DNA from: Bacteroidota bacterium
GTDB taxonomy: Bacteria; Bacteroidota; Bacteroidia; Flavobacteriales; Flavobacteriaceae
Direction of reading: 5' to 3'
Assembly (NCBI GenBank): GCA_947447375.1
Contig: CANFJB010000007.1
Coordinates: 48,280-112,279 of the forward strand
Length of the DNA: 64,000 nucleotides
Shown here: piece after piece, positions 12,124 through 62,366 of the stretch
Numbering within the stretch: the first letter of the stretch is position 1
Layout of the letters: each line of letters starts with the position of its first letter
Position numbers and translations under genes: made by a program
Notes under the pieces: model-generated
What the model was told of the DNA's origin: nothing
Database searches by the model: none
The model's input: the letters and a program-made list of their open reading frames with translations, nothing else

Positions 12124-13677
12124 TTATTTTGGATTCATTACTAAAAACGGAACAATCATCTCTTCCAATGAAATTCCTCCGTGCTGGTAAGTATTTCTGT
12201 AGTAACTCACATAGTGATTGTAATTATTTACATAAGCTAAGAAATAATCATTCTTTGCAAAAATATACGAACTACTCATATTTATCGCTGGTAATCCTAC
12301 TTTTCTAGGATCTTTAACAGCATAAACGTCTTTATCTTCGTAGGACAAACTTCTACCAGTTTTATATCTCAAGTTCAAACTCGTGTTTTTATCACCAATT
12401 ACTTTCGAAGGATTCTTTACATTTATCGTTCCGTGGTCAGTTGTAATTATCAATTTAAAACCTAGTTTTTGCGCCTGTTGAATGATTTCTAATAAAGGTG
12501 AATTCTTAAACCAACTCAGCGTTAAAGAGCGATATGCTTTGTCATCTGAAGCCAATTCTTTCACCACATCCATTTCTGTTTTCGCATGTGAAAGCATGTC
12601 CACAAAATTGTAAACCACTGTCACTAAGTCGTTATTTTTATAGGTTTTGAAATTATCAACTAATTTCTTGCCCGATGCTAAATTGGTTATTTTAAAATAA
12701 TCTTGTTTGATGTTTAACCCCAAACGTTTTAAATGTGCTGTTAAAAATTCAGCTTCATACAAGTTTTTTCCTCCTTCATCAGGATCGTTTTTCCAATATT
12801 GTGGAAATTGTTTTTCCATTTCAAGAGGCGTTAATCCTGAGAAAATGGCGTTTCTAGCATATTGAGTTGCAGTAGGTAAAATAGCATAATACGGAACTTC
12901 TTTCTCTAATTTGTAATGGTTGTTTACCACACTTTCAAAAACTTTCCATTGGTCGTAACGCAAATTGTCAATTACCACAAATAGAATTGGCTTGTCTTTT
13001 TTAGTGATTTCCGGAACTACCAATTCACGAAATAAATTATGTGACAAAACCGGTTTATCCGCTTTAGGCTCGTACCAATCTTCATAATTACGTTCTATAA
13101 ACTTTCCAAACTGCGAATTGGCTTCCACTTTTTGAGATTCCAATATCTGAATCATACTGTGATCATTGATATCTTCTAGTTCTAATTCCCAGAAAATCAA
13201 TTTTTTATACAACTCAATCCAATCTTCATAAGAATTTACCATTGCCATATCCATCGAAATTTTTCTAAATTCCTTCTGGTAATCCATCGTGGTTTTTTGA
13301 GAAATCAATCGTGAATGATCCAAGTTCTTTTTCAAACTCAATAATATCTGATTCGGATTGACTGGCTTAATCAAATAATCAGCGATTTTCGACCCAATCG
13401 CTTCCTCCATAATATATTCTTCCTCACTCTTAGTGATCATAATCATTGGTGTTGCCGACTTTTTTTCCTTCATTTCCGACAAGGTTTCCAATCCGCTCAT
13501 TCCTGGCATATTTTCATCTAGAAAAACAATGTCAAAATCGCCTTCCTCAAATATTTCAATAGCATCCCGACCATTATTACAACTCGTAACATGGTAATTC
13601 TTCATTTCCAAAAATAAAATGTGTGGCTTTAACAATTCAATTTCATCATCAACCCAAAGTATTTTGATCTTATCCAT
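12124..13677 (-). CDS. porX: PorX response regulator (receiver + PglZ phosphodiesterase domain)
   Basis: ILWVDDEI..LKPH, FLDENMPG receiver; VIDNLRYDQW, LPTATQYARNAIF, TTDHG, YQHGGISLEEM PglZ motifs; adjacent to tsaE. Confidence 0.93.
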   Translation of the reverse strand: MDKIKILWVDDEIELLKPHILFLEMKNYHVTSCNNGRDAIEIFEEGDFDIVFLDENMPGMSGLETLSEMKEKKSATPMIMITKSEEEYIMEEAIGSKIADYLIKPVNPNQILLSLKKNLDHSRLISQKTTMDYQKEFRKISMDMAMVNSYEDWIELYKKLIFWELELEDINDHSMIQILESQKVEANSQFGKFIERNYEDWYEPKADKPVLSHNLFRELVVPEITKKDKPILFVVIDNLRYDQWKVFESVVNNHYKLEKEVPYYAILPTATQYARNAIFSGLTPLEMEKQFPQYWKNDPDEGGKNLYEAEFLTAHLKRLGLNIKQDYFKITNLASGKKLVDNFKTYKNNDLVTVVYNFVDMLSHAKTEMDVVKELASDDKAYRSLTLSWFKNSPLLEIIQQAQKLGFKLIITTDHGTINVKNPSKVIGDKNTSLNLRYKTGRSLSYEDKDVYAVKDPRKVGLPAINMSSSYIFAKNDYFLAYVNNYNHYVSYYRNTYQHGGISLEEMIVPFLVMNPK

Positions 13678-52811: not shown

Positions 52812-52978
52812 ATTATTTGTATTTAACCTATTTATTACTATCAAAGATAAAAAATAGTTGCGCATAATAAATGCTATTTTTTATCTTTTGTGAATTTGTA
52901 ATTAATAATATTAATAAAAATCATTTTCATTACAATTTGTTACCTTTTTTTATTTAATTTGTAATTAAATAATTCGCA

Positions 52979-53581
52979 ATGCAATTCAATCCACAAGATT
53001 TAGAACAAACCGCTATTTACAAATTATTGACTGGAATCGTTATTCCTAGACCAATAGGTTGGATTTCAACAATTAGCGAAGACGGAATCAATAATTTAGC
53101 TCCATTTTCCTACTTTAATGCGGTTGGTGATGATCCGCCTCACGTAATGTTTTCAACAGTTCATTCCAATAATTCGAATAAAGACACGCTAAATAATGTT
53201 TTAGCAACCAAGCAATTTGTTGTAAATATGGTTACAGAAGATTTAGTGGAACAAATGAATAGGACTTCACAAGCTATTCCTGCAAACGAAAGTGAATTTG
53301 AATTGGCAGGCCTCACTCCTATTGCGTCTTCATTGGTTTTACCACCACGTGTGAAAGAATGTAAAATCACTATGGAATGCGAAATGGTTCATCATTATCA
53401 ATTGGAAAATTCAAAAACGGGCGGAGCAACAATTGTAATTGGAAAAATTGTTTTGTTTCATATTGATGAAAGTGTTTTATTAGACAATTATAAAATTAAT
53501 TTAGAAACCTACAAACCAATTGCGCGTTTGGCTGGTTCTAATTACTCAAAATTAGGAGATATTTTTTCAATAAAAAGATAA
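52979..53581 (+). CDS. Flavin reductase-like FMN-binding protein
   Basis: VIPRPIGWIST, NLAPFSYFN, KDTLNN...FVVN, PIARLAGSNY. Confidence 0.85.
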   Translation: MQFNPQDLEQTAIYKLLTGIVIPRPIGWISTISEDGINNLAPFSYFNAVGDDPPHVMFSTVHSNNSNKDTLNNVLATKQFVVNMVTEDLVEQMNRTSQAIPANESEFELAGLTPIASSLVLPPRVKECKITMECEMVHHYQLENSKTGGATIVIGKIVLFHIDESVLLDNYKINLETYKPIARLAGSNYSKLGDIFSIKR

Positions 53582-53582
53582 C

Positions 53583-55889
53583 ATGAAAATAACTGTAATT
53601 GGTGGCGGTCCTGGTGGTTTGTATTTTTCAATTTTATTGAAGAAGGCAATTCCAAATTGTCAAATTGATATTTATGAACGCAATAAAGCAGATGATAGTT
53701 TTGGATTTGGTGTTGTTTTTTCAGATGAAACTTTAAGTGAATTCTTAACCCGAGATCCTAAATCATATGAATTAATCCGAAGTAAATTTGCCTATTGGGA
53801 CGATTTAGATGTTGCTCGTGATGGTGAAATTGTACGAATTTCAGGTAATGGATTTTGTGGTTGTTCAAGAAAAACATTATTGCAATTACTACAACAAAGA
53901 TGCATCGAAGAAGGTGTAAATCTTCACTTTGAACAAAATGTGGATGACCTAAAAAAATACAGTGATTCAGATGTTATTGTGGCTTGTGACGGAATTGGTA
54001 GTCAAATTAGAACGAAATTTTCTAAGGAATTTGGAACTAAAATTGAATTAAAGAAAAATCGATTTGTTTGGCTAGGTTCAACAAAACCCTTGGATGCGTT
54101 TACCTATTTCTTCAGAAATACTCCTTACGGAATGATTGTGGCTCACTCCTACCAATATGAAAAAGGAATGAGTACTTGGATTTTCGAATGCTCGGATGCA
54201 ACATGGAAAAATGCCGGTTTTGAAGTAGAAAATGAACAAGATACAATTGAAAAAATATCAAATTTATTTAAAGAGGAATTGGACGGACATCCTTTAATTT
54301 CAAATAAATCACACTGGCGTAAATTTCCTGCAATTACTAACGAAAAATGGCATTTCGATACTATTGTTTTACTTGGCGATGCTAAAGCTACAGCTCATTA
54401 TTCTATTGGTTCAGGAACAAAATTAGCCATGGAATGCGCAATTGGTTTAGCGGATGCTTTAATTGAATTTCCGAACGATATTCCACAAGCATTTGATAAA
54501 TATGAAAAATCAAGACGAAATAGAGTCGAAATGATTCAATATGCTGCTAATGTTTCTTTGGATTGGTTTGAAAATATGGATCGAAATGCGAAACATGATT
54601 TTCAGCAATTTGCATTTGGATGCATGACGCGATCAAAAAAAGTAACTTTTGAGAATTTAGCGATTCGTGACGCTTCCTTCCCAGAAAAAGTTTTAGCAGA
54701 ATTCAATTTAAAACAAGGAATTTCTGACTTAAAAACTCCCGCTGCTTTTACACCATTCTATTTAAGAAAAATGAAATTAGAAAACAGAATTGTGATGTCT
54801 CCAATGGGACAATATTCTGCTGAAAACGGGTTGGTCAACAATTGGCATTTAGTTCATTACGGAGCCAGAGCTACCGGCGGTGTAGGTTTAATATTAACCG
54901 AAATGACAGCTATTTCTGAAACAGGACGTATTACTTTAGGTTGTGCTGGTATTTGGAATGAAAATCAAGTAGTTGAGTGGAAAAAAATAACTGATTTTAT
55001 TCATCAAAATAGTAAATCTAAAATCGGAATTCAATTAGGACATTCTGGCCGAAAAGGGGCGCTAAATCTTCCGTCTGTTGGTAACAATATTCCTTTAGAA
55101 AAAGACAATTGGGATTTGATTTCAGCTTCTCCAATCGCCTTTTCATCTAAAAATGCTGTTCCAAAAGAAATGACAATTGATTATATGAATCAAATTGTTT
55201 CTGAATTTACCCAAGCAACAATAAACGCTGATAATGCCGGTTTTGATATGATTGAATTACAGGCGCATCATGGGTTTTTATTGGCTTCTTTCCTTTCTCC
55301 ACTTACCAATATTCGTAAAGATGAATTTGGCGGAAGCATAGAAAACAGATTAAAATTTCCTATAAAAGTTTTTACAGAAATGAGAAAGGCTTTCAATCCA
55401 GAAAAACCAATGTCGGTAAGAATTTCTGCTATTGATTGGGCTGAAAACGGTATTTCCGAAGAGGATGTTTTAGAAATAGCAAAAGCTTTTCAAGATGCTG
55501 GTGCTGATATAATCAACGTATCAACAGGAAATACTGTCGAAAACCAGAAGCCATTAATTGGTAGAATGTGGCAAACCCCCTATTCTGATGCGATTAGAAA
55601 TACTGTTGGTATTCCAACAATAACAACAGGATTCATTCAAGATATTGATCAAATAAATACTATTTTATTAAACGGTCGATCCGATTTAGTAGCGCTTGGA
55701 AGTCCTTTATTATTGGATGCTAATTTTGTTAGAAATGCAGAAGCCTATGAACAATATAAAACGACTTCAATTCCAAATCAATATTTGCCAGGAATTTCTC
55801 ATTTATATCCTTACAAAGCAGCCGAAAGAAATGCCCTGGAGAGCATGAAAAAAGCATTAAAACCTGAAAGTCATAGTCCTAAAAAATAG
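53583..55889 (+). CDS. Bifunctional anthraniloyl-CoA / salicylyl-CoA monooxygenase-oxidoreductase (AbmA/SdgC-like)
   Basis: N-terminal GGGPGGL, FGFGVVFSD, GDAKATAHYSIGSGTKLAME flavin monooxygenase; C-terminal OYE-like barrel RIVMSPM.QYSA, FLSPLTN.R.DEFGGS.ENR. Confidence 0.9.
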   Translation: MKITVIGGGPGGLYFSILLKKAIPNCQIDIYERNKADDSFGFGVVFSDETLSEFLTRDPKSYELIRSKFAYWDDLDVARDGEIVRISGNGFCGCSRKTLLQLLQQRCIEEGVNLHFEQNVDDLKKYSDSDVIVACDGIGSQIRTKFSKEFGTKIELKKNRFVWLGSTKPLDAFTYFFRNTPYGMIVAHSYQYEKGMSTWIFECSDATWKNAGFEVENEQDTIEKISNLFKEELDGHPLISNKSHWRKFPAITNEKWHFDTIVLLGDAKATAHYSIGSGTKLAMECAIGLADALIEFPNDIPQAFDKYEKSRRNRVEMIQYAANVSLDWFENMDRNAKHDFQQFAFGCMTRSKKVTFENLAIRDASFPEKVLAEFNLKQGISDLKTPAAFTPFYLRKMKLENRIVMSPMGQYSAENGLVNNWHLVHYGARATGGVGLILTEMTAISETGRITLGCAGIWNENQVVEWKKITDFIHQNSKSKIGIQLGHSGRKGALNLPSVGNNIPLEKDNWDLISASPIAFSSKNAVPKEMTIDYMNQIVSEFTQATINADNAGFDMIELQAHHGFLLASFLSPLTNIRKDEFGGSIENRLKFPIKVFTEMRKAFNPEKPMSVRISAIDWAENGISEEDVLEIAKAFQDAGADIINVSTGNTVENQKPLIGRMWQTPYSDAIRNTVGIPTITTGFIQDIDQINTILLNGRSDLVALGSPLLLDANFVRNAEAYEQYKTTSIPNQYLPGISHLYPYKAAERNALESMKKALKPESHSPKK

Positions 55890-55916
55890 ATTGTAGAAAG
55901 TAAAAATTCCTAATTT

Positions 55917-57518
55917 ATGAAGAAGTACCAAGACCAATTTGCCCACATTCATTTGCCTGACAAACAATTTCAGCCAGATTACATTTACAATAATCCGAAT
56001 TTCGAATTGGAACCTAGTTTAAATTGCGTTGAACGTCTTTTAGACAATCATATTAAGGAAGGTAGAGGGAATTCTGGGGCAATACGAACTTTTAATGAAA
56101 CTTGGACTTATCAAGATTTATATGATAAATCAAATCAAATTGCTCACGTATTAGTAGATGAATTAGGATTAGTTTCAGGAAACCGCGTTTTGATTCGTTC
56201 TGCAAACAATCCAATGTTTGTAGCTTGTTGGTTTGCAATTCTAAAAGCCGGTGGAATTGTCGTCGCAACCATGCCTTTACTTCGAGAAAAAGAATTGGAA
56301 ACCATAGTTGATTGTGCTGAAATATCCCATGCTTTTTGCGATTTACGATTGGAAGAAGCGTTATCATTAGTAAAATCGCCTTATTTAAAATCGGTTTGTA
56401 CATTTGATGGATCGAATGAAAAAAAATCGGAATTAGAAGTTTTAATGGCTTCAAAACCAACCGAATTTTCAAACTTTCCCACATTTGCGGAAGCGGTTTC
56501 GATTATAGGATTCACATCAGGAACAACGGGTTTGCCAAAAATGACCGCCCATTATAACAAAGATATTTTATTGATTTGTGAAGCCTTTCCAAAATATGCT
56601 TTACAACCAAAAGCAGACGATATTTTCACAGGAAGTCCACCATTAGGATTTACATTCGGCTTGGGTGGCTTGGTTTTATTTCCATTTTATTATGGAGCTT
56701 CCACCTTTTTAATTGAAAAACCATCCCCAGATATATTACTTGAAGCGATTCAAGATTTTAAAATCACTATTTGCTTTACAGCGCCAACGGCTTGGAGAAT
56801 GATTACTCAAAAAGTTACTGATTTCGATATTTCCAGCTTACGCAAATGTGTTTCAGCTGGTGAGAATCTTCCTTTAAAAGTTTGGGAAGATTGGCACAAA
56901 GCCACGGGACTTAAGATTATTGATGGTATTGGATCAACCGAATTACTTCATATTTTTATATCTTCGAATGAAGAAAATATGAAGCCTGGAGCCACTGGAT
57001 TAGCTATTTACGGTTACGAAGCTAAAATTGTAGACGATAATGGAAATGAAGTTGGCAATAATGAAATTGGTAAATTAGCTGTCCGAGGAATTACAGGTTG
57101 CAAGTACTTGAATCGACTTGAAAAACAAGAGGAATACGTACAAAACAAATGGAATTTAACCGGTGATATTTTCAAAAAAGATGAAGATGGCTATTTCTGG
57201 TTCATTGCCCGTGGCGACGATATGATTATTTCTTCGGGGTATAATATTGCGGCAATTGAAGTAGAAAGCGTACTTTTGACTCACGATGAAATTCTAGAAT
57301 GTGCCGTTGTAGGTATTCCTGATGAAAATCGTGGAATGCTAGTTTGTGCAAATATAGTATTGAAAAATCCAGCTTCCGCAAATGAAGATTTGGCGAAATC
57401 AATACAAGATTGGTTCAAACAAGTAGCTGCTCCATACAAATATCCAAGGATTATTAAATTTCATGACGTTTTACCAAAAACAGAAACAGGAAAGATACAA
57501 CGATTTAAATTGAAATAA
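55917..57518 (+). CDS. Aromatic acid--CoA ligase (2-aminobenzoate-CoA ligase AbmG-like)
   Basis: FTSGTTGLPK, SPPLGFTFGLGG, SAGE.LP, DGIGSTELLHIF, LPKTETGKIQRF. Confidence 0.88.
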   Translation: MKKYQDQFAHIHLPDKQFQPDYIYNNPNFELEPSLNCVERLLDNHIKEGRGNSGAIRTFNETWTYQDLYDKSNQIAHVLVDELGLVSGNRVLIRSANNPMFVACWFAILKAGGIVVATMPLLREKELETIVDCAEISHAFCDLRLEEALSLVKSPYLKSVCTFDGSNEKKSELEVLMASKPTEFSNFPTFAEAVSIIGFTSGTTGLPKMTAHYNKDILLICEAFPKYALQPKADDIFTGSPPLGFTFGLGGLVLFPFYYGASTFLIEKPSPDILLEAIQDFKITICFTAPTAWRMITQKVTDFDISSLRKCVSAGENLPLKVWEDWHKATGLKIIDGIGSTELLHIFISSNEENMKPGATGLAIYGYEAKIVDDNGNEVGNNEIGKLAVRGITGCKYLNRLEKQEEYVQNKWNLTGDIFKKDEDGYFWFIARGDDMIISSGYNIAAIEVESVLLTHDEILECAVVGIPDENRGMLVCANIVLKNPASANEDLAKSIQDWFKQVAAPYKYPRIIKFHDVLPKTETGKIQRFKLK

Positions 57519-57519
57519 T

Positions 57520-57945
57520 ATGAATCAACCATTTATTAAAGAAGAACAAATTCGATTCCAACATGTAGATTACGCTGGTATCGTTTTTTATCCCCGTTAT
57601 TTCGAAATGCTAAATTGCATTGTTGAAGATTTTTATGATGAAGCACTAGGTTTGCCTTTTAATAAAATGCATGAAACTGGAGGAATTCCAACGGTTGATT
57701 TAAAAGTTAAATTTATGAAACCTGCACGTTTGGGTGAAGTACTAACCAAGTATTTTTGGATAAAAAATATCGGTGGTTCTTCACTTCTATGTGGATTCAA
57801 ATTTGAAAATAGTCAAAAAGCGATTTGCCTTGAAGGCGAAGTTACACTGGTGAATGTTGCTTTTGCTGAAAATAGAAGTTCTATCAAAGCGGCACCCTTT
57901 TCTGATTTAATTAAAAGTAAATTGCAAAAATATTTAATCCATTAA
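57520..57945 (+). CDS. Acyl-CoA thioesterase (4-HBA-CoA/YbgC-like)
   Basis: RFQHVDYAGIVFYPRYF motif. Confidence 0.88.
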   Translation: MNQPFIKEEQIRFQHVDYAGIVFYPRYFEMLNCIVEDFYDEALGLPFNKMHETGGIPTVDLKVKFMKPARLGEVLTKYFWIKNIGGSSLLCGFKFENSQKAICLEGEVTLVNVAFAENRSSIKAAPFSDLIKSKLQKYLIH

Positions 57946-57948
57946 ATC

Positions 57949-58929
57949 ATGACTTTCAATAAATTCAAAGCTGCAGCAGTTCAAACTTCCCCAGTTTTTC
58001 TAAATGCTGACAAAACGATTGATAAAGCTATTACTTTTATAAAGGAAGCAGCTGAAAATGGTGCGCAATTGATTGCTTTTCCAGAGGTGTTTGTATCTGG
58101 TTATCCTTATTGGAATTGGATTATGACACCCGTTCAAGGAAGTAAATGGTATGAAAAATTATACAAAAGTGCTATAACTGCTGATGGTTCGGAAGTAAAA
58201 CGAATTTGTAATGCTGCCAAAGAATTCAATATACATATAGTTATTGGAATCAATGAAAAAGGAACAAGTTTTGGTGAGATTTACAACACCAATTTGATTA
58301 TTGATAATAATGGAAATCTTATTGGTAAACATAGAAAATTAGTACCCACTTGGGCTGAAAAACTCACTTGGACTTCTGGTGATGGCTCTTCATTAAAAGT
58401 ATATAAAACAGAAATTGGTCCAATTGGAACTTTAGCATGTGGAGAAAACACCAATACTTTAGCAAGATTTGCATTGCTCGCTCAAGGCGAATTAATTCAC
58501 GTTGCTAATTATATTTCGTTGCCAGTTGCACCTCCCGATTATGATATGGCAGAAGCAATAAAAATTCGTGCAGCCGCGCATTCATTTGAAGGAAAACTAT
58601 TTACAATTGTTTCATGCTCGACTATTTCTGAAGAAATTAAAGATGCACTTAGAGAAGATGTTCCGAATGTAGATGAATTATTAACACGTAAAAACTCTGC
58701 TTTTTCAGGATTTATAGGTCCTAATGGTGCAGCAATTGGAACGCCATTAATCGATGAAGAAGGAATTGTTTATGCTGATATCGATTTGGAAAAATGTATT
58801 CAGCCGAAACAAATGCACGATATTTTAGGACATTACAACCGATTTGACATTTTTGATTTGCGAGTAAATACAGCGCCAACAAGAAATATCACTTTTATAG
58901 ACAATCACGACCAGTTTAATAAACAATAA
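57949..58929 (+). CDS. Nitrilase-superfamily C-N hydrolase
   Basis: E-K-C triad: FPEVF, HRKLVPT..E, LACGEN; C-terminal DILGHYNRFD. Confidence 0.92.
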   Translation: MTFNKFKAAAVQTSPVFLNADKTIDKAITFIKEAAENGAQLIAFPEVFVSGYPYWNWIMTPVQGSKWYEKLYKSAITADGSEVKRICNAAKEFNIHIVIGINEKGTSFGEIYNTNLIIDNNGNLIGKHRKLVPTWAEKLTWTSGDGSSLKVYKTEIGPIGTLACGENTNTLARFALLAQGELIHVANYISLPVAPPDYDMAEAIKIRAAAHSFEGKLFTIVSCSTISEEIKDALREDVPNVDELLTRKNSAFSGFIGPNGAAIGTPLIDEEGIVYADIDLEKCIQPKQMHDILGHYNRFDIFDLRVNTAPTRNITFIDNHDQFNKQ

Positions 58930-58932
58930 ACT

Positions 58933-60042
58933 ATGGAAGCAAAACATTCAGACGACCAATTAGGAAGAGCTAGAGTTCAAGACACACCTGAATTAGAAGC
59001 TTATTATAATGAATTAGAACAATTAGGTGCTGGTGCTTTATGGACCGTTGCTAATGATATTGAACCTTGGGAACCTCGCTCCTCCTCTGTTCCGATGTTA
59101 TGGAAATATGACGATTTACGCGAATTGGTTTTGAAATCATCGGAATTGGTTACTCCAGAACAAGCAGGACGTCGAGTGGTTTATTTAGTAAATGACAATC
59201 GTAAAGATGTCAGCGCTGCTGTGGGTTGGTTATACACTGGAATCCAAGTGACACGTCCTGGAGAAAGTACATCTGCTCACAAACACAAAGCTTCTGCGCT
59301 CCGTTTTATTATGGAAGGCGAAGGTGGTTACACGGTAGTTGATGGAAACAAAATCACTTTCGAAGTCAATGATTTCGTTATTACTCCTAATTCTACTTGG
59401 CACGAACATGGCGTTGATGAAAATGGGAAAACGTGTATTTGGCAAGATGGTTTGGATATTCCGTTAGTAAACGCTTTGGAAGCAAATGATTATGCCGTTT
59501 ATGATGGTAAACAACCGTTGACTAAACCGGTAAATAATTCCCCAATTACTTTTGGTTGTGCTGGCTTAATTCCTGCAGATCAAACTTGGGATAAACCTTA
59601 TTCGCCATTATTTAAATATTCATGGAAAAACGTATATCCAGCTTTAATTGAAACTTCAATAGTGAATGAAGTTAATCCTTTTGACGGAATTTTGATGCAC
59701 TATACCAATCCGTTAACTGGTGGACACGTGATGCAAACAATGGGAGCAGCAATGCAATTATTACCTGCAGGATTCAAAGGAAAAGCGCACAAACATACCG
59801 GTTCATTTGTATACCAATGTGCTAAAGGTCGTGGTTATTCAATTATTAATGGAAAACGTTTCGATTGGGCAGCAAGAGATATTTTCTGTGTTCCAAGTTG
59901 GGCTTGGCATGAACATGTGAATCTTTCTGAAACCGAAGATGCTTGTCTTTTTTCATTTAACGATTTACCGGTCATTGAAAGTTTAGGGTTGTTTCAATCT
60001 CGAGAATTGGAAGAAAATGGTGGGTTTCAAGAAGTTCAATAA
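58933..60042 (+). CDS. Gentisate 1,2-dioxygenase-family bicupin ring-cleavage dioxygenase
   Basis: RRVVYLVN, AHKHKASALRFIMEG..GYTVVDG, ITPNSTWHEH, WQDGLDIPLV, second cupin HKHTGS..VPSWAWHEH. Confidence 0.88.
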   Translation: MEAKHSDDQLGRARVQDTPELEAYYNELEQLGAGALWTVANDIEPWEPRSSSVPMLWKYDDLRELVLKSSELVTPEQAGRRVVYLVNDNRKDVSAAVGWLYTGIQVTRPGESTSAHKHKASALRFIMEGEGGYTVVDGNKITFEVNDFVITPNSTWHEHGVDENGKTCIWQDGLDIPLVNALEANDYAVYDGKQPLTKPVNNSPITFGCAGLIPADQTWDKPYSPLFKYSWKNVYPALIETSIVNEVNPFDGILMHYTNPLTGGHVMQTMGAAMQLLPAGFKGKAHKHTGSFVYQCAKGRGYSIINGKRFDWAARDIFCVPSWAWHEHVNLSETEDACLFSFNDLPVIESLGLFQSRELEENGGFQEVQ

Positions 60043-60090
60043 CAATAGCAATTTCAATGGCAATGGCAATGTCAATGAAAATATCAAAAT
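60037..60090 (+). repeat. Degenerate CAATNN hexamer tandem repeat (about 9 units)
   Basis: caataa caatag caattt caatgg caatgg caatgt caatga aaatat caaaat. Confidence 0.75.
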
Positions 60091-60117
60091 AATAAACTTT
60101 GCGGTTAAACAATAATT

Positions 60118-61026
60118 ATGAAATTACTTACTTACAAAACACAAATATCAGAATCCAGATTGGGATTTATTCATAACAATCAGGTGGTTGATATGGAAGA
60201 TTTCGGGGATATTTCTAATTTTCCTTTACCATATTCTATGTTAGAATTAATAGATATGGGAATTGAAGTTATTGAAGAAATCAATTCTTTAGTTGAAGAT
60301 GCTAATCCTGCAGAACTGGCCGAAATCAGTTATTCATTTGACGAAATTACGATTCTTGCTCCTATCGAAAAACCAAGAAAAAACATTATCGGTATTGGGT
60401 TAAATTATACCGAACACGTTGCCGAAAGCGCTAGAACATTAGATACCACAGGGAAATTACCTCAAAAACCTATTATATTTTCAAAACCTCCAACAACAGT
60501 TACAGGTACCAATACCGAAATTATAAAAAATACCAAACTTACCGAGCAATTGGATTGGGAAGTAGAATTGGCTGTGATCATTGGTAAAAAAGGAAAATAT
60601 GTACCTAAAGAAACTGCGATGGATTGTATTTTTGGATACACCGTTATTAATGATATTTCGGCACGTGATTGCCGTCGTGAAGGACAATGGATTGTTTCGA
60701 AAGGTCAAGATACATTTGCTCCAATGGGTCCGTATTTAGTTACAAAAGACGAAATTGAAAATCCACATAATTTAAATTTGTCTTTAACTGTTAATGGCAT
60801 TGAAAAACAAAACTCCAACACCCAATTTCTATTATTCAATATCAATGATTTGATTAATGATTTGAGTACGGTTTTCACTTTAGAACCTGGAGATATTATT
60901 GCCACAGGAACACCTTCTGGAGTTGGTGCTGGAAGAAGTCCACAGGAATGGTTGTATGATGGAGACGTTGTAGAATGCACCGTTGAAGGAATTGGAACGA
61001 TAAGAAATACAATAAAAGAAATATAA
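60118..61026 (+). CDS. Fumarylacetoacetate hydrolase family protein
   Basis: IIGIGLNY.EH, IFSKP, DWEVELAV, NDISARD, KGQDTFAPMG, PGDIIATGTP.GVG. Confidence 0.93.
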   Translation: MKLLTYKTQISESRLGFIHNNQVVDMEDFGDISNFPLPYSMLELIDMGIEVIEEINSLVEDANPAELAEISYSFDEITILAPIEKPRKNIIGIGLNYTEHVAESARTLDTTGKLPQKPIIFSKPPTTVTGTNTEIIKNTKLTEQLDWEVELAVIIGKKGKYVPKETAMDCIFGYTVINDISARDCRREGQWIVSKGQDTFAPMGPYLVTKDEIENPHNLNLSLTVNGIEKQNSNTQFLLFNINDLINDLSTVFTLEPGDIIATGTPSGVGAGRSPQEWLYDGDVVECTVEGIGTIRNTIKEI

Positions 61027-61028
61027 TT

Positions 61029-61490
61029 ATGAAATTCAAAATAACATTAATTACTTTCATTTTTATTTGTTTAAACACCTATTCACAAAATACCATTATT
61101 AAAAAAGTGAATTATGCTAACATTGAAATTCAAGTTCCTGCAAATTATATTGCTAATTCAGAATACGAAATTGAAAATGATAATTTTTCGGCTCAGTGGT
61201 TATATCTTTCAAAAGAGATGTTTGATCAAAATGTACAATATCAATTAATAAAACAATTTGAAGATCAAACTAAAGCAAAAGAAATCTCAGAAATCAGTTT
61301 TTTATCTAATGGATCAATATTTAAAGGGAAAATTTATAAAATAAAAAACACCAATTTAAAATATAAAGTATTGGCTTCTGGAATAGTTAATAATCAACCA
61401 TTAATACTTAATTTAAGTTTTAAAAATGAACCTAAATCAAACACAGATTTTGATCAATTAATGCAAAACTTTATCAAATTAAAAGATTAA
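61029..61490 (+). CDS. Secreted hypothetical protein inserted in the catabolic operon
   Basis: Signal peptide MKFKITLITFIFICLNTYSQ; visibly more AT-rich than its neighbours; no catalytic motif. Confidence 0.65.
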   Translation: MKFKITLITFIFICLNTYSQNTIIKKVNYANIEIQVPANYIANSEYEIENDNFSAQWLYLSKEMFDQNVQYQLIKQFEDQTKAKEISEISFLSNGSIFKGKIYKIKNTNLKYKVLASGIVNNQPLILNLSFKNEPKSNTDFDQLMQNFIKLKD

Positions 61491-61514
61491 AAATTTGCGG
61501 TTAAATAAAAAATC

Positions 61515-62264
61515 ATGAAAAAATACAGAATAGGACAAATAGTTCCGTCTTCCAATGTGACGATGGAAACTGAAATACCAGCTATTTTTCGATCTCGTGA
61601 AACGATTTTACCCGAGCGATTTACTTTTCACAGCAGTAGAATGCGAATGAAAAAAGTAACTAAAGAAGAACTCGAAGCCATGGATGCCATGAGTTTAAAA
61701 TGTGCACAAGAACTTTCTGATGCTCATGTTGACGTAATGGGTTATGCTTGTTTGGTAGCCATTATGAGTATGGGTCGCGGTTATCACTGTGTGTCGGAAG
61801 TGAATTTACATCAGGAAACTATCGCCAACGACTTCCCTACTCCAATTGTAACTTCTGCTGGTGCGCTAATTAATGGATTGAAAGTTTTAGGTGCCAAAAA
61901 AGTGGCTGTAATTACACCATATATGCGACCGTTAACCGATATGGTAGTTGATTACATCGAACACCAAGGTTTTGAAGTAGTCGATTCCATTGCATTGGAA
62001 ATACCGGACAATTTAGAAGTTGCCGCACAAGATCCAATGAATTTACTGGAAATTTATAAGCGTTTGAACCTGGAAGGAGTTGATGTATTAGTAGCTTCTG
62101 CCTGTGTGCAAATGCCGTCTTTAGAAGCAATTGATTTAATCCAGAAAGAAATCGGAATTCCGGTAACTTCTGCAGCAGTTTGTACTACCTATGAAATGAT
62201 GAAAAAACTCGGAATCGAAGCCAAATCAGCTATTGGTGGTGAGTTATTGAGTGGAAAATATTAA
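61515..62264 (+). CDS. maiA: Maleate cis-trans isomerase (Asp/Glu racemase family, NicE/MaiA-like)
   Basis: IGQIVPSSN.TMETE, ERFTFHSSRMRM, GYACLVA and SACVQM (two catalytic Cys), closely matching the NicE/MaiA pattern. Confidence 0.93.
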   Translation: MKKYRIGQIVPSSNVTMETEIPAIFRSRETILPERFTFHSSRMRMKKVTKEELEAMDAMSLKCAQELSDAHVDVMGYACLVAIMSMGRGYHCVSEVNLHQETIANDFPTPIVTSAGALINGLKVLGAKKVAVITPYMRPLTDMVVDYIEHQGFEVVDSIALEIPDNLEVAAQDPMNLLEIYKRLNLEGVDVLVASACVQMPSLEAIDLIQKEIGIPVTSAAVCTTYEMMKKLGIEAKSAIGGELLSGKY

Positions 62265-62312: not shown

Positions 62313-62345
62313 AAAAAAGAGCAACTATCAAGCTGCTCTTTTTTT
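62313..62345. terminator. Bidirectional terminator ending the aromatic operon
   Basis: AAAAAAGAGCA-ACTATCAAGC-TGCTCTTTTTT. Confidence 0.7.
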
Positions 62346-62366
62346 ATACTAATAGAATTGAAATAA

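Follow-up and report, generated by a model that had tools for sequence, protein, structure and literature searches.

Aerobic catabolism of anthranilate (2-aminobenzoate) through CoA thioesters is known from the abm genes of Azoarcus evansii: AbmG activates the substrate, and the two-domain FAD + FMN enzyme AbmA (ACMR) forms a reduced product, 2-amino-5-oxocyclohexenecarboxyl-CoA. The subject here is a nine-gene operon, flr-mo-lig-te-nit-gdo-fah-orfX-mai, at positions 52979-62264 of a 64,000-nucleotide stretch (the window) of contig CANFJB010000007.1, whose source is a freshwater Flavobacterium. What appears to be new is the arrangement: an abm-type upper half is joined to a gentisate-like lower half and to a nitrilase and maleate isomerase exit. 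With slightly less than even probability (about 0.48), the operon encodes a pathway that degrades anthranilate aerobically through CoA thioesters, cleaves 5-hydroxyanthranilate, and ends in pyruvate, fumarate, and ammonia.

Described systems

The operon shares with abm the two-domain flavoenzyme architecture and the ligase clade, and would share the CoA activation of anthranilate. It differs in that neither the operon nor its flanks encode SDR, enoyl-CoA hydratase, acyl-CoA dehydrogenase, or RidA proteins; a thioesterase and a dioxygenase module replace the beta-oxidation-like steps. Moreover, the OYE motif of the window monooxygenase carries Gln for His and Phe for Tyr, and its product is proposed to be aromatic. 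A second comparison is provided by the sdgABCD genes of Streptomyces sp. WA46 and the cehGHI genes of Rhizobium sp. X9, which likewise combine CoA ligation, 5-hydroxylation, thioester hydrolysis, and 1,2-cleavage by a bicupin dioxygenase. By contrast with these systems as described, the window has an anthranilate-type ligase; nitrilase and maleate isomerase are integral; the dioxygenase is a member of the GDOsp subfamily rather than a canonical GtdA; and maleylpyruvate isomerase is missing.

Maleate isomerase usually follows maleamate hydrolysis, as in the NicF/NicE and Ami/Iso (Pseudomonas putida S16) systems. The operon resembles these in its maleate isomerase and in its proposed final steps, where loss of NH3 leaves maleate and isomerization yields fumarate. 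However, its C-N hydrolase is a branch-1 nitrilase; no isochorismatase-family maleamate amidohydrolase is encoded in the operon; and a benzene ring, not a pyridine, is degraded upstream, with maleamate a putative intermediate. A variant of the gentisate pathway, represented by HbzF of P. alcaligenes and by PDB entry 6JVV, also places an FAH hydrolase directly after the dioxygenase, dispenses with an isomerase, and produces maleate. Here the differences are that the window Fah is distant from 6JVV, that MaiA stands in place of maleate hydratase, and that a nitrilase is conserved.

Finally, two papers (PMC6221969; PMC4539516) recount an indole-isatin-anthranilate-gentisate route in Alcaligenes In3 (Claus & Kutzner 1983) and conversion of 5-hydroxyanthranilate to gentisate in Nocardia opaca (Cain 1968). 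These routes share the 5-hydroxyanthranilate hub with the present scheme, and the isatin/indole source with the proteobacterial clusters described below, but deamination precedes cleavage and no CoA esters take part. A 2018 review lists the enzyme of the anthranilate-to-gentisate route as 'unreported' and its genes as 'not yet revealed' (PMC6221969).

Proposed pathway

All pathway steps were read from sequence and gene context. Lig would convert anthranilate to anthraniloyl-CoA; Mo would hydroxylate C5, its altered OYE site keeping the product, 5-hydroxyanthraniloyl-CoA, aromatic; and Te would hydrolyze this to 5-hydroxyanthranilate. The GDOsp-type dioxygenase would then open the ring at the C1-C2 bond while C2 still bears the nitrogen. 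Fah would split the acylpyruvate into pyruvate and a C4 acid that retains the nitrogen, either maleamate (the amide) or cis-3-cyanoacrylate (the nitrile), from which the nitrilase would form maleate and NH3; MaiA would convert maleate to fumarate. The probable task of Flr is to provide reduced flavin or to remove quinone-imine by-products by reduction.

Gene context gives good support to anthranilate as substrate and to 5-hydroxyanthranilate as intermediate. The exit through maleamate is unproven, being one of three live options: an amide, a nitrile, or deamination before cleavage. The literature searched (subscription journals lay outside the search) contained no description of this pathway, and NCBIfam (June 2026) held no equivalog model for the Nit, Gdo, Fah, and Mo proteins of this cluster. 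The database names of Nit orthologues are all generic.

The upper half: ligase, monooxygenase, thioesterase, and flavin reductase

Lig was compared with the ligases of abm-type clusters, which contain genes for SDR, enoyl-CoA hydratase, acyl-CoA dehydrogenase, and RidA (loci L081-L083 and L094); some such clusters adjoin a gene for tryptophan 2,3-dioxygenase or for a class V aminotransferase-fold (kynureninase-like) protein. Identity to these ligases, some of them annotated as 2-aminobenzoate-CoA ligase, is 44-53%, against ~32% to ordinary benzoate-CoA ligases. By sequence, then, Lig is an aryl-CoA ligase of the 2-aminobenzoate-CoA ligase clade, which favours anthranilate over salicylate as its likely substrate. 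A parallel by gene context comes from Arthrobacter Rue61a, where anthranilate-CoA ligase activity was measured for two ligase genes adjoining a mo-like monooxygenase gene (PMC3534580).

For Mo, the best NCBIfam model is PRK08255 (salicylyl-CoA 5-hydroxylase; 976 bits, against a cut-off of 1078), a model and name that also cover anthranilate-type enzymes. Mo is ~44-45% identical to abm-type enzymes and ~44% identical to proteobacterial dioxygenase-linked enzymes. Its OYE motif reads LQAHHGFL, compared with LH(A/C)AHGYL in abm-type enzymes. H-x-x-H-G-Y is the OYE substrate-binding and proton-donor motif, equivalent to His164, His167, and Tyr169 of YqjM. The first His is Gln in all 80 Flavobacterium copies compared, and also in dioxygenase-linked copies from Burkholderia, Ralstonia, Caballeronia, Cupriavidus, and Novosphingobium; the Tyr is replaced by Phe or Asn in most dioxygenase-linked copies. 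The motif is intact in all five abm/RidA-type (beta-oxidation-linked) enzymes. Since the beta-proteobacterial dioxygenase-linked enzymes are closer to the Ralstonia abm-type enzyme (67-68% identity) than to the window Mo (44%), the His-to-Gln change is common to two distant lineages, and it goes together with the dioxygenase. The altered motif fits loss of the dearomatizing reduction and release of aromatic 5-hydroxyanthraniloyl-CoA, a compound that ACMR itself yields under limiting NADH (PMC3534580). Mo is thus proposed to be an anthraniloyl-CoA 5-hydroxylase with a disabled ene-reductase site. Te is a putative 5-hydroxyanthraniloyl-CoA thioesterase; in proteobacterial clusters, a 4HBT thioesterase gene adjoins mo or genes for an indolepyruvate-oxidoreductase-like (IOR) enzyme.

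Homologues of Flr occur with the dioxygenase module in Burkholderia, Ralstonia, Cupriavidus necator, Aminobacter, Tistrella, Novosphingobium, and S. alexandrii. Flr may have a role other than serving the monooxygenase, quinone-imine reductase being one alternative.

Some related loci are worth recording in their own right. In L097-L100 (Aminobacter, Tistrella, S. alexandrii, and Novosphingobium), a PF01613 flavin reductase accompanies a GDOsp-type dioxygenase, FAH, and a NIT4-like nitrilase, also in cases that lack a neighbouring mo. The NCBI name 'bifunctional salicylyl-CoA 5-hydroxylase/oxidoreductase' is borne by enzymes of abm-type clusters (L081, L082, L083, L094, and L095), and is probably misleading for most of them. 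Streptomyces plasmids searched for an Sdg-type cluster contained only a 3-hydroxybenzoate-type cluster. L095, on a Rhodococcus qingshengii plasmid, exemplifies a third cluster type: lig, thioesterase, mo (with an intact HCAHGY motif), alpha/beta hydrolase, flr, RidA, FAH, and a small monocupin, together with tryptophan 2,3-dioxygenase, a kynureninase-like gene, and a PaaX regulator. This cluster may be a further undescribed anthranilate-CoA variant in the Actinomycetota.

The lower half: a module shared by four phyla

Gdo matches PDB entry 3BU7 ('GDOsp') with an E-value of 4e-159, and is ~61% identical to the product of the Ruegeria pomeroyi gene that encodes 3BU7; the cupin of the R. pomeroyi module (L084:10036-11160, on a megaplasmid) is identical to that entry. 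Scores fall below the NCBIfam cut-offs for gentisate 1,2-dioxygenase (TIGR02272; 309 versus 442 bits) and for 5-aminosalicylate 1,2-dioxygenase (MabB; 262 versus 650 bits). Identity is 55-66% inside the Gdo subfamily and 36-41% to genes annotated gtdA, so that by sequence comparison the subfamily is clearly separate from canonical GtdA gentisate dioxygenases. The physiological substrate of GDOsp has possibly been mis-assigned, because its gene sits in a nit-cupin-FAH-MaiA cluster; the literature searched contained no report of GDOsp tested on 5-hydroxyanthranilate. Members of the subfamily retain an HxH...H metal motif also in the carboxyl-terminal cupin (KAHKHTG...WHEH in the window), which the Escherichia coli enzyme (2D40) does not have.

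Fah is closest in the PDB to 8SKY (7e-64), and matches the maleylpyruvate hydrolase 6JVV at just 4e-29; its gene always comes after gdo in orthologous modules. Mai aligns over its full length with the P. putida S16 maleate isomerase 4FQ7 (8.5e-96).

The nit-gdo-fah-mai module recurs across four bacterial phyla, with representatives in Alpha-, Beta-, and Gammaproteobacteria and Actinomycetota at 45-67% identity. A first protein search with Nit returned near-identical metagenome sequences only, and the distant contexts come from tblastn against plasmids. This revealed an orthologue group at 55-66% identity to Nit (59-66% for module-borne copies). Orthologues of gdo (55-66%), fah (45-56%), and mai (63-67%) adjoin nit in R. 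pomeroyi, Shinella (two copies), Burkholderia, Ralstonia, and Embleya. The four-gene set was recognized by annotation or gene calling in Sulfitobacter, Leisingera, Caballeronia, Cupriavidus (C. necator), Providencia, and Xenorhabdus.

What feeds the module differs between lineages. Beta- and Gammaproteobacteria share the order IOR-alpha, IOR-beta, thioesterase, mo, gdo, fah, nit, mai, plus a MarR gene and often flr; in the module-bearing Proteobacteria, the IOR enzyme stands in for the ligase. A Caballeronia 'cyclase' encoded beside the cluster is an isatin hydrolase (1e-138 to 5NMP of R. solanacearum), with copies in Burkholderia (81% identity to that of Caballeronia) and Shinella (55%). The C. 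necator cluster is followed by genes for an SDR protein, a StyA-like monooxygenase, and a flavin reductase, which are read as indole-oxidation genes. By analogy with phenylglyoxylate oxidoreductase, the IOR enzyme would convert isatinate (2-aminophenylglyoxylate) to 2-aminobenzoyl-CoA. The proteobacterial clusters are read, accordingly, as leading from isatin through isatinate and anthraniloyl-CoA to a Mo-type enzyme. This context implies that the intermediate contains nitrogen, and that the substrate of the nitrilase would therefore arise within the pathway and not be a nitrile taken up from outside.

A different layout is seen in R. pomeroyi, Shinella, and Sulfitobacter (L084, L090, and L091), where IOR-alpha/beta, thioesterase, and two MarR genes are divergent to nit-gdo-fah-mai; these loci also carry genes for an aldehyde dehydrogenase, a class III aminotransferase, and TTT/TRAP transporters.

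Conservation in Flavobacterium

The Flavobacterium comparison took one genome per species, for 80 loci, nearly all of them labelled Flavobacterium or Flavobacteriaceae/Bacteroidota. Identity of Mo across these loci is 73-96%. All eight enzyme genes occur in the same order in 49 loci, and 27 of the remaining 31 end at most ~1.3 kb past the last detected cluster gene, at a contig or fetched-stretch edge; the arrangement is far beyond chance. The flr gene is present in all but one of the 80. Nit was found in 62 loci, that is, in every locus reaching past te; the five te-containing loci without it terminate at te. Nit (80-99% identity) and Mai (90-99%) are among the best-conserved products of the cluster.

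OrfX is the exception. It occurs in only one locus (L002, 82% identity) besides the window, and its amino terminus resembles a signal peptide or lipobox. Freshwater metatranscriptome contigs, which cover every operon gene and show that the operon is transcribed in lakes, depart from the window at 61022 and 61026; this indicates co-existing strains without orfX. The gene is a strain-specific insertion, a passenger outside the pathway. The operon tolerates passengers, as other species carry different inserted genes: alpha/beta hydrolase, GltB-like FMN protein, AHSA1/SRPBCC protein, MFS transporter, and porin. These accessory genes give no hint of the substrate, and no tryptophan, kynurenine, isatin, or IOR genes were found in the window or the 80 loci.

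In 30 species (for example, L006:8735-9154), a divergent gene ahead of the operon encodes a 139-residue Zn-ribbon and helix-turn-helix (HTH) protein similar to IS1 InsA; a porin or MFS transporter gene often accompanies it. The protein may be an operon regulator. The window has no such gene; there, acs directly abuts the operon.

How the nitrogen leaves

The PDB matches of Nit are nitrilases and cyanide dihydratases (1e-65 to 1e-43), with ~40% identity to solved nitrilases. The catalytic Glu/Lys/Glu/Cys residues are present: the segments FPEVF, HRKLVPTWAEK, and LACGEN align with 8UXU, and are kept in all orthologues (GTLACGEN and HRKLVPTWAE occur in 62 of 62 Flavobacterium copies). The Cys motif is CGEN rather than the Cys-Trp-Glu signature CWE(N/H). 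Judged by these features, Nit is a true branch-1 nitrilase of predicted activity, belonging neither to an amidase branch nor to the NicF type. In Aminobacter, Tistrella, and Novosphingobium, the nitrilase found with a GDOsp-type dioxygenase and FAH is another one: it is NIT4-like (5e-105 to 6I00), has a CWEN motif, is 32% identical to Nit, and is encoded adjoining flr. No amidase of another family lies beside a GDOsp-type dioxygenase in any context examined; there is just this second nitrilase lineage. Relatives of Nit in Polaromonas and Salinigranum (51-56% identity) lie outside such clusters, and therefore the CGEN clade is broader than the pathway.

The nitrilase is placed after Fah on three grounds: the nit and mai reading frames share 4 bp in Burkholderia, Caballeronia, Xenorhabdus, and Providencia; the gene order gdo-fah-nit-mai is also the order of steps; and Leisingera has a stand-alone module, in which a LysR gene adjoins nit-gdo-fah-mai and a TRAP transporter, without the CoA enzymes.

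Several points weigh against the proposed pathway. Branch-1 nitrilases are poor amidases, and the clusters with NIT4-like nitrilases have no adjacent MaiA gene. Gdo keeps the canonical substrate-binding residues Gln108, Arg127, and His162 (alignment with 3BU7). The literature searched contained no ring-cleaving dioxygenase active on 5-hydroxyanthranilate. The alphaproteobacterial modules (L084, L090, and L091) have no mo nearby, and the source of the 5-hydroxyl is unexplained there. Three Flavobacterium species (L025, L030, and L047; ~15.4-22.3 kb) have other genes after nit, for a LytTR response regulator, a TPR-HisKA_2 kinase, and SnoaL-like proteins; gdo-fah-mai was not found in the next 6-7 kb. 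PMC4585797 counts GDOsp among purified, characterized gentisate 1,2-dioxygenases. The older Alcaligenes and Nocardia routes must also be reckoned here.

The main rival, a serious one although rather unlikely in itself, is that nitrogen leaves before cleavage. The nitrilase, perhaps together with Flr, would act on 5-hydroxyanthranilate or on anthraniloyl- or 5-hydroxyanthraniloyl-CoA, through Cys addition-elimination at C2 or hydrolysis of a quinone-imine tautomer, to make gentisate, salicylyl-CoA, or gentisyl-CoA plus NH3. What follows would be gentisate catabolism in which maleylpyruvate is hydrolyzed directly to maleate and pyruvate, and MaiA acts last. This scheme accords with the reported gentisate dioxygenase activity of the Gdo orthologue (3BU7/GDOsp), with the appearance of gentisate after anthranilate in Alcaligenes In3 and from 5-hydroxyanthranilate in N. 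opaca, and with the existence of direct maleylpyruvate hydrolases (PDB 6JVV); furthermore, flr accompanies nitrilase and dioxygenase genes even where mo is not nearby, and nit remains with the upper genes in the three Flavobacterium species just named. However, two unrelated branch-1 lineages (CGEN and NIT4-like, 32% identical) would both need unprecedented chemistry: we know of no nitrilase-superfamily enzyme that deaminates an aromatic amine. The nit-mai translational coupling and the gdo-fah-nit-mai order suit a late step better, and the dioxygenase subfamily is clearly apart from canonical gentisate dioxygenases.

If cleavage comes first, as in the proposed pathway, a nitrile intermediate is about as likely as an amide, because two separate nitrilase lineages have been recruited. 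The nitrile route would run from the Criegee step through collapse of a cyclic imidate, retro-Pinner style, to (Z)-3-cyanoacryloylpyruvate, from which Fah would release cis-3-cyanoacrylate for hydrolysis to maleate by the nitrilase. Taken as a whole it is unlikely. The chemistry would nonetheless be reasonable, with the cyclic imidate left after oxygen insertion eliminating instead of hydrolyzing to the amide. Cis-3-cyanoacrylate is a C4 cyano-acid with the same chain as beta-cyanoalanine.

These considerations divide the original prediction, which had been made from the window sequence alone and ran through ring cleavage to an amide and then maleamate. Its anthranilate and 5-hydroxyanthranilate steps have good support from context. 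Its preference for a nitrogen-containing 2-aminobenzoyl substrate over salicylate is strengthened by the ligase clade, the conservation of the module, and the isatin/IOR context. It had made conservation of the nitrilase with the cluster its own test, and the nitrilase is present in all 62 loci reaching past te and in modules of three other phyla. On the other hand, the amide product and the role of Nit as maleamate amidase are not established, Nit being a branch-1 nitrilase and a second lineage occupying the equivalent slot. To call MaiA otherwise unexplained was an overstatement, as direct hydrolysis of maleylpyruvate to maleate and pyruvate is a known variant of the gentisate pathway.

A third explanation, quite improbable, is a Sdg/Ceh-type pathway for salicylate (or 3-hydroxybenzoate), running from salicylyl-CoA through gentisyl-CoA, gentisate, and maleylpyruvate to maleate plus pyruvate, and then to fumarate; the nitrilase would be a passenger, or a feeder from an aromatic nitrile or amide. 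Fah and MaiA are explicable in this way without nitrogen. The best NCBIfam matches, salicylyl-CoA 5-hydroxylase for Mo and gentisate 1,2-dioxygenase for Gdo, agree with it, as does the reported activity of GDOsp, but both matches are below cut-off, and the name given to Mo is also found on enzymes of clear anthranilate/tryptophan clusters. Moreover, Lig falls in the anthranilate-CoA ligase clade; Nit is 80-99% conserved and kept in the module across phyla; and the orthologous clusters that begin with isatin hydrolase and an IOR-like enzyme leave no room for an external nitrile. The weakest candidate is a meta-amino benzoate route, in which 3-aminobenzoyl-CoA would give 5-aminosalicylate for a MabB-like dioxygenase and nitrogen would be lost from an enamine ring-fission product: in its favour, hydroxylation of the ACMR/SdgC type is para to an existing substituent, and Gdo does match the 5-aminosalicylate 1,2-dioxygenase model, but its 262 bits are far under the cut-off of 650, enamine/imine hydrolysis is RidA-type rather than nitrilase chemistry, and the isatin hydrolase/IOR context and AbmG-like ligase clade predict a 2-amino substrate, which makes this route very improbable.

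Implications

The cluster and its relatives are candidate genes for a route from anthranilate (indole/isatin) to 5-hydroxyanthranilate/gentisate, a gap since the 1960s-80s. Relatives are found in R. pomeroyi, C. necator, Ralstonia, Providencia, Xenorhabdus, and many cultured Flavobacterium type strains. If the proposed pathway is correct, it would give physiological roles to the crystallized GDOsp (3BU7) and isatin hydrolase (5NMP and 5NNA), and to a widespread orphan nitrilase clade. A single active-site change would convert a dearomatizing ACMR to a plain hydroxylase, and turnover of tryptophan/indole signalling molecules would be tied to the central metabolism of heterotrophs that abound in fresh and marine waters. 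Should a nitrile be formed, Gdo would be the first known nitrile-generating ring-cleaving oxygenase, and two orphan bacterial nitrilase clades would have a physiological substrate. Should deamination come early instead, the cluster would be the long-sought gene set of the anthranilate-to-gentisate route.

Operon layout

Table 1. Features of the operon and its borders in the window.
Feature	Coordinates	Strand	Description
Presumed operon promoter region	52866..52978		AT-rich, 113 bp, separating the divergent genes acs and flr; inferred only
flr	52979..53581	+	Flavin reductase-like, 200 aa; PF01613, 5e-25
mo	53583..55889	+	FAD_binding_3 + Oxidored_FMN; two-domain flavoprotein, AbmA/SdgC-like
lig	55917..57518	+	AMP-binding, benzoate-CoA ligase family; AbmG-like clade
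te	57520..57945	+	Hotdog-fold 4HBT acyl-CoA thioesterase; PF13279 + PF03061
nit	57949..58929	+	CN_hydrolase, 326 aa; branch-1 nitrilase homologue
gdo	58933..60042	+	Bicupin Fe(II) ring-cleaving dioxygenase, GDOsp subfamily
fah	60118..61026	+	FAA_hydrolase PF01557, 3.5e-68; putative acylpyruvate C-C hydrolase
orfX	61029..61490	+	153 aa; no Pfam or NCBIfam match
mai	61515..62264	+	Amdase superfamily; maleate cis-trans isomerase by 4FQ7 match
Terminator-like hairpin	62313..62346		A/U runs on both sides; shared with convergent downstream gene

The window has a GC content of ~33%. All nine plus-strand open reading frames (ORFs) of the operon lie at the coordinates first predicted, separated in order by 1, 27, 1, 3, 3, 75, 2, and 24 bp. 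The original picture of nine tightly spaced, co-oriented ORFs ending at one terminator is confirmed by these coordinates and by the hairpin at ~62313-62346, which folds with -17.3 kcal/mol (z = -4.09; none of 200 shuffles folds equally well). Profile searches against Pfam and NCBIfam, from which the domain calls on the window proteins were made, agree with the gene inventory originally given, and the cluster indeed lacks beta-oxidation and maleylpyruvate isomerase genes. A scan for sigma-70 promoters and terminators gave sites at or below the shuffle level, its sigma-70 part being uninformative for Bacteroidota; it overlooked the 62313-62346 terminator because of the 10-nt loop. The flanking genes, acs, DUF294/CBS, exonuclease, and DUF4440, are of housekeeping type and unrelated to the operon.

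The 75-bp gdo-fah spacer carries CAATGG/CAATAG hexamer repeats. Both fah and mai are preceded, 9-11 nt before their ATG, by the exact 12-mer TTTGCGGTTAAA (regions 60035-60109 and 61494-61505); the window has no further exact copy, and the single match with one mismatch lies at 12713.

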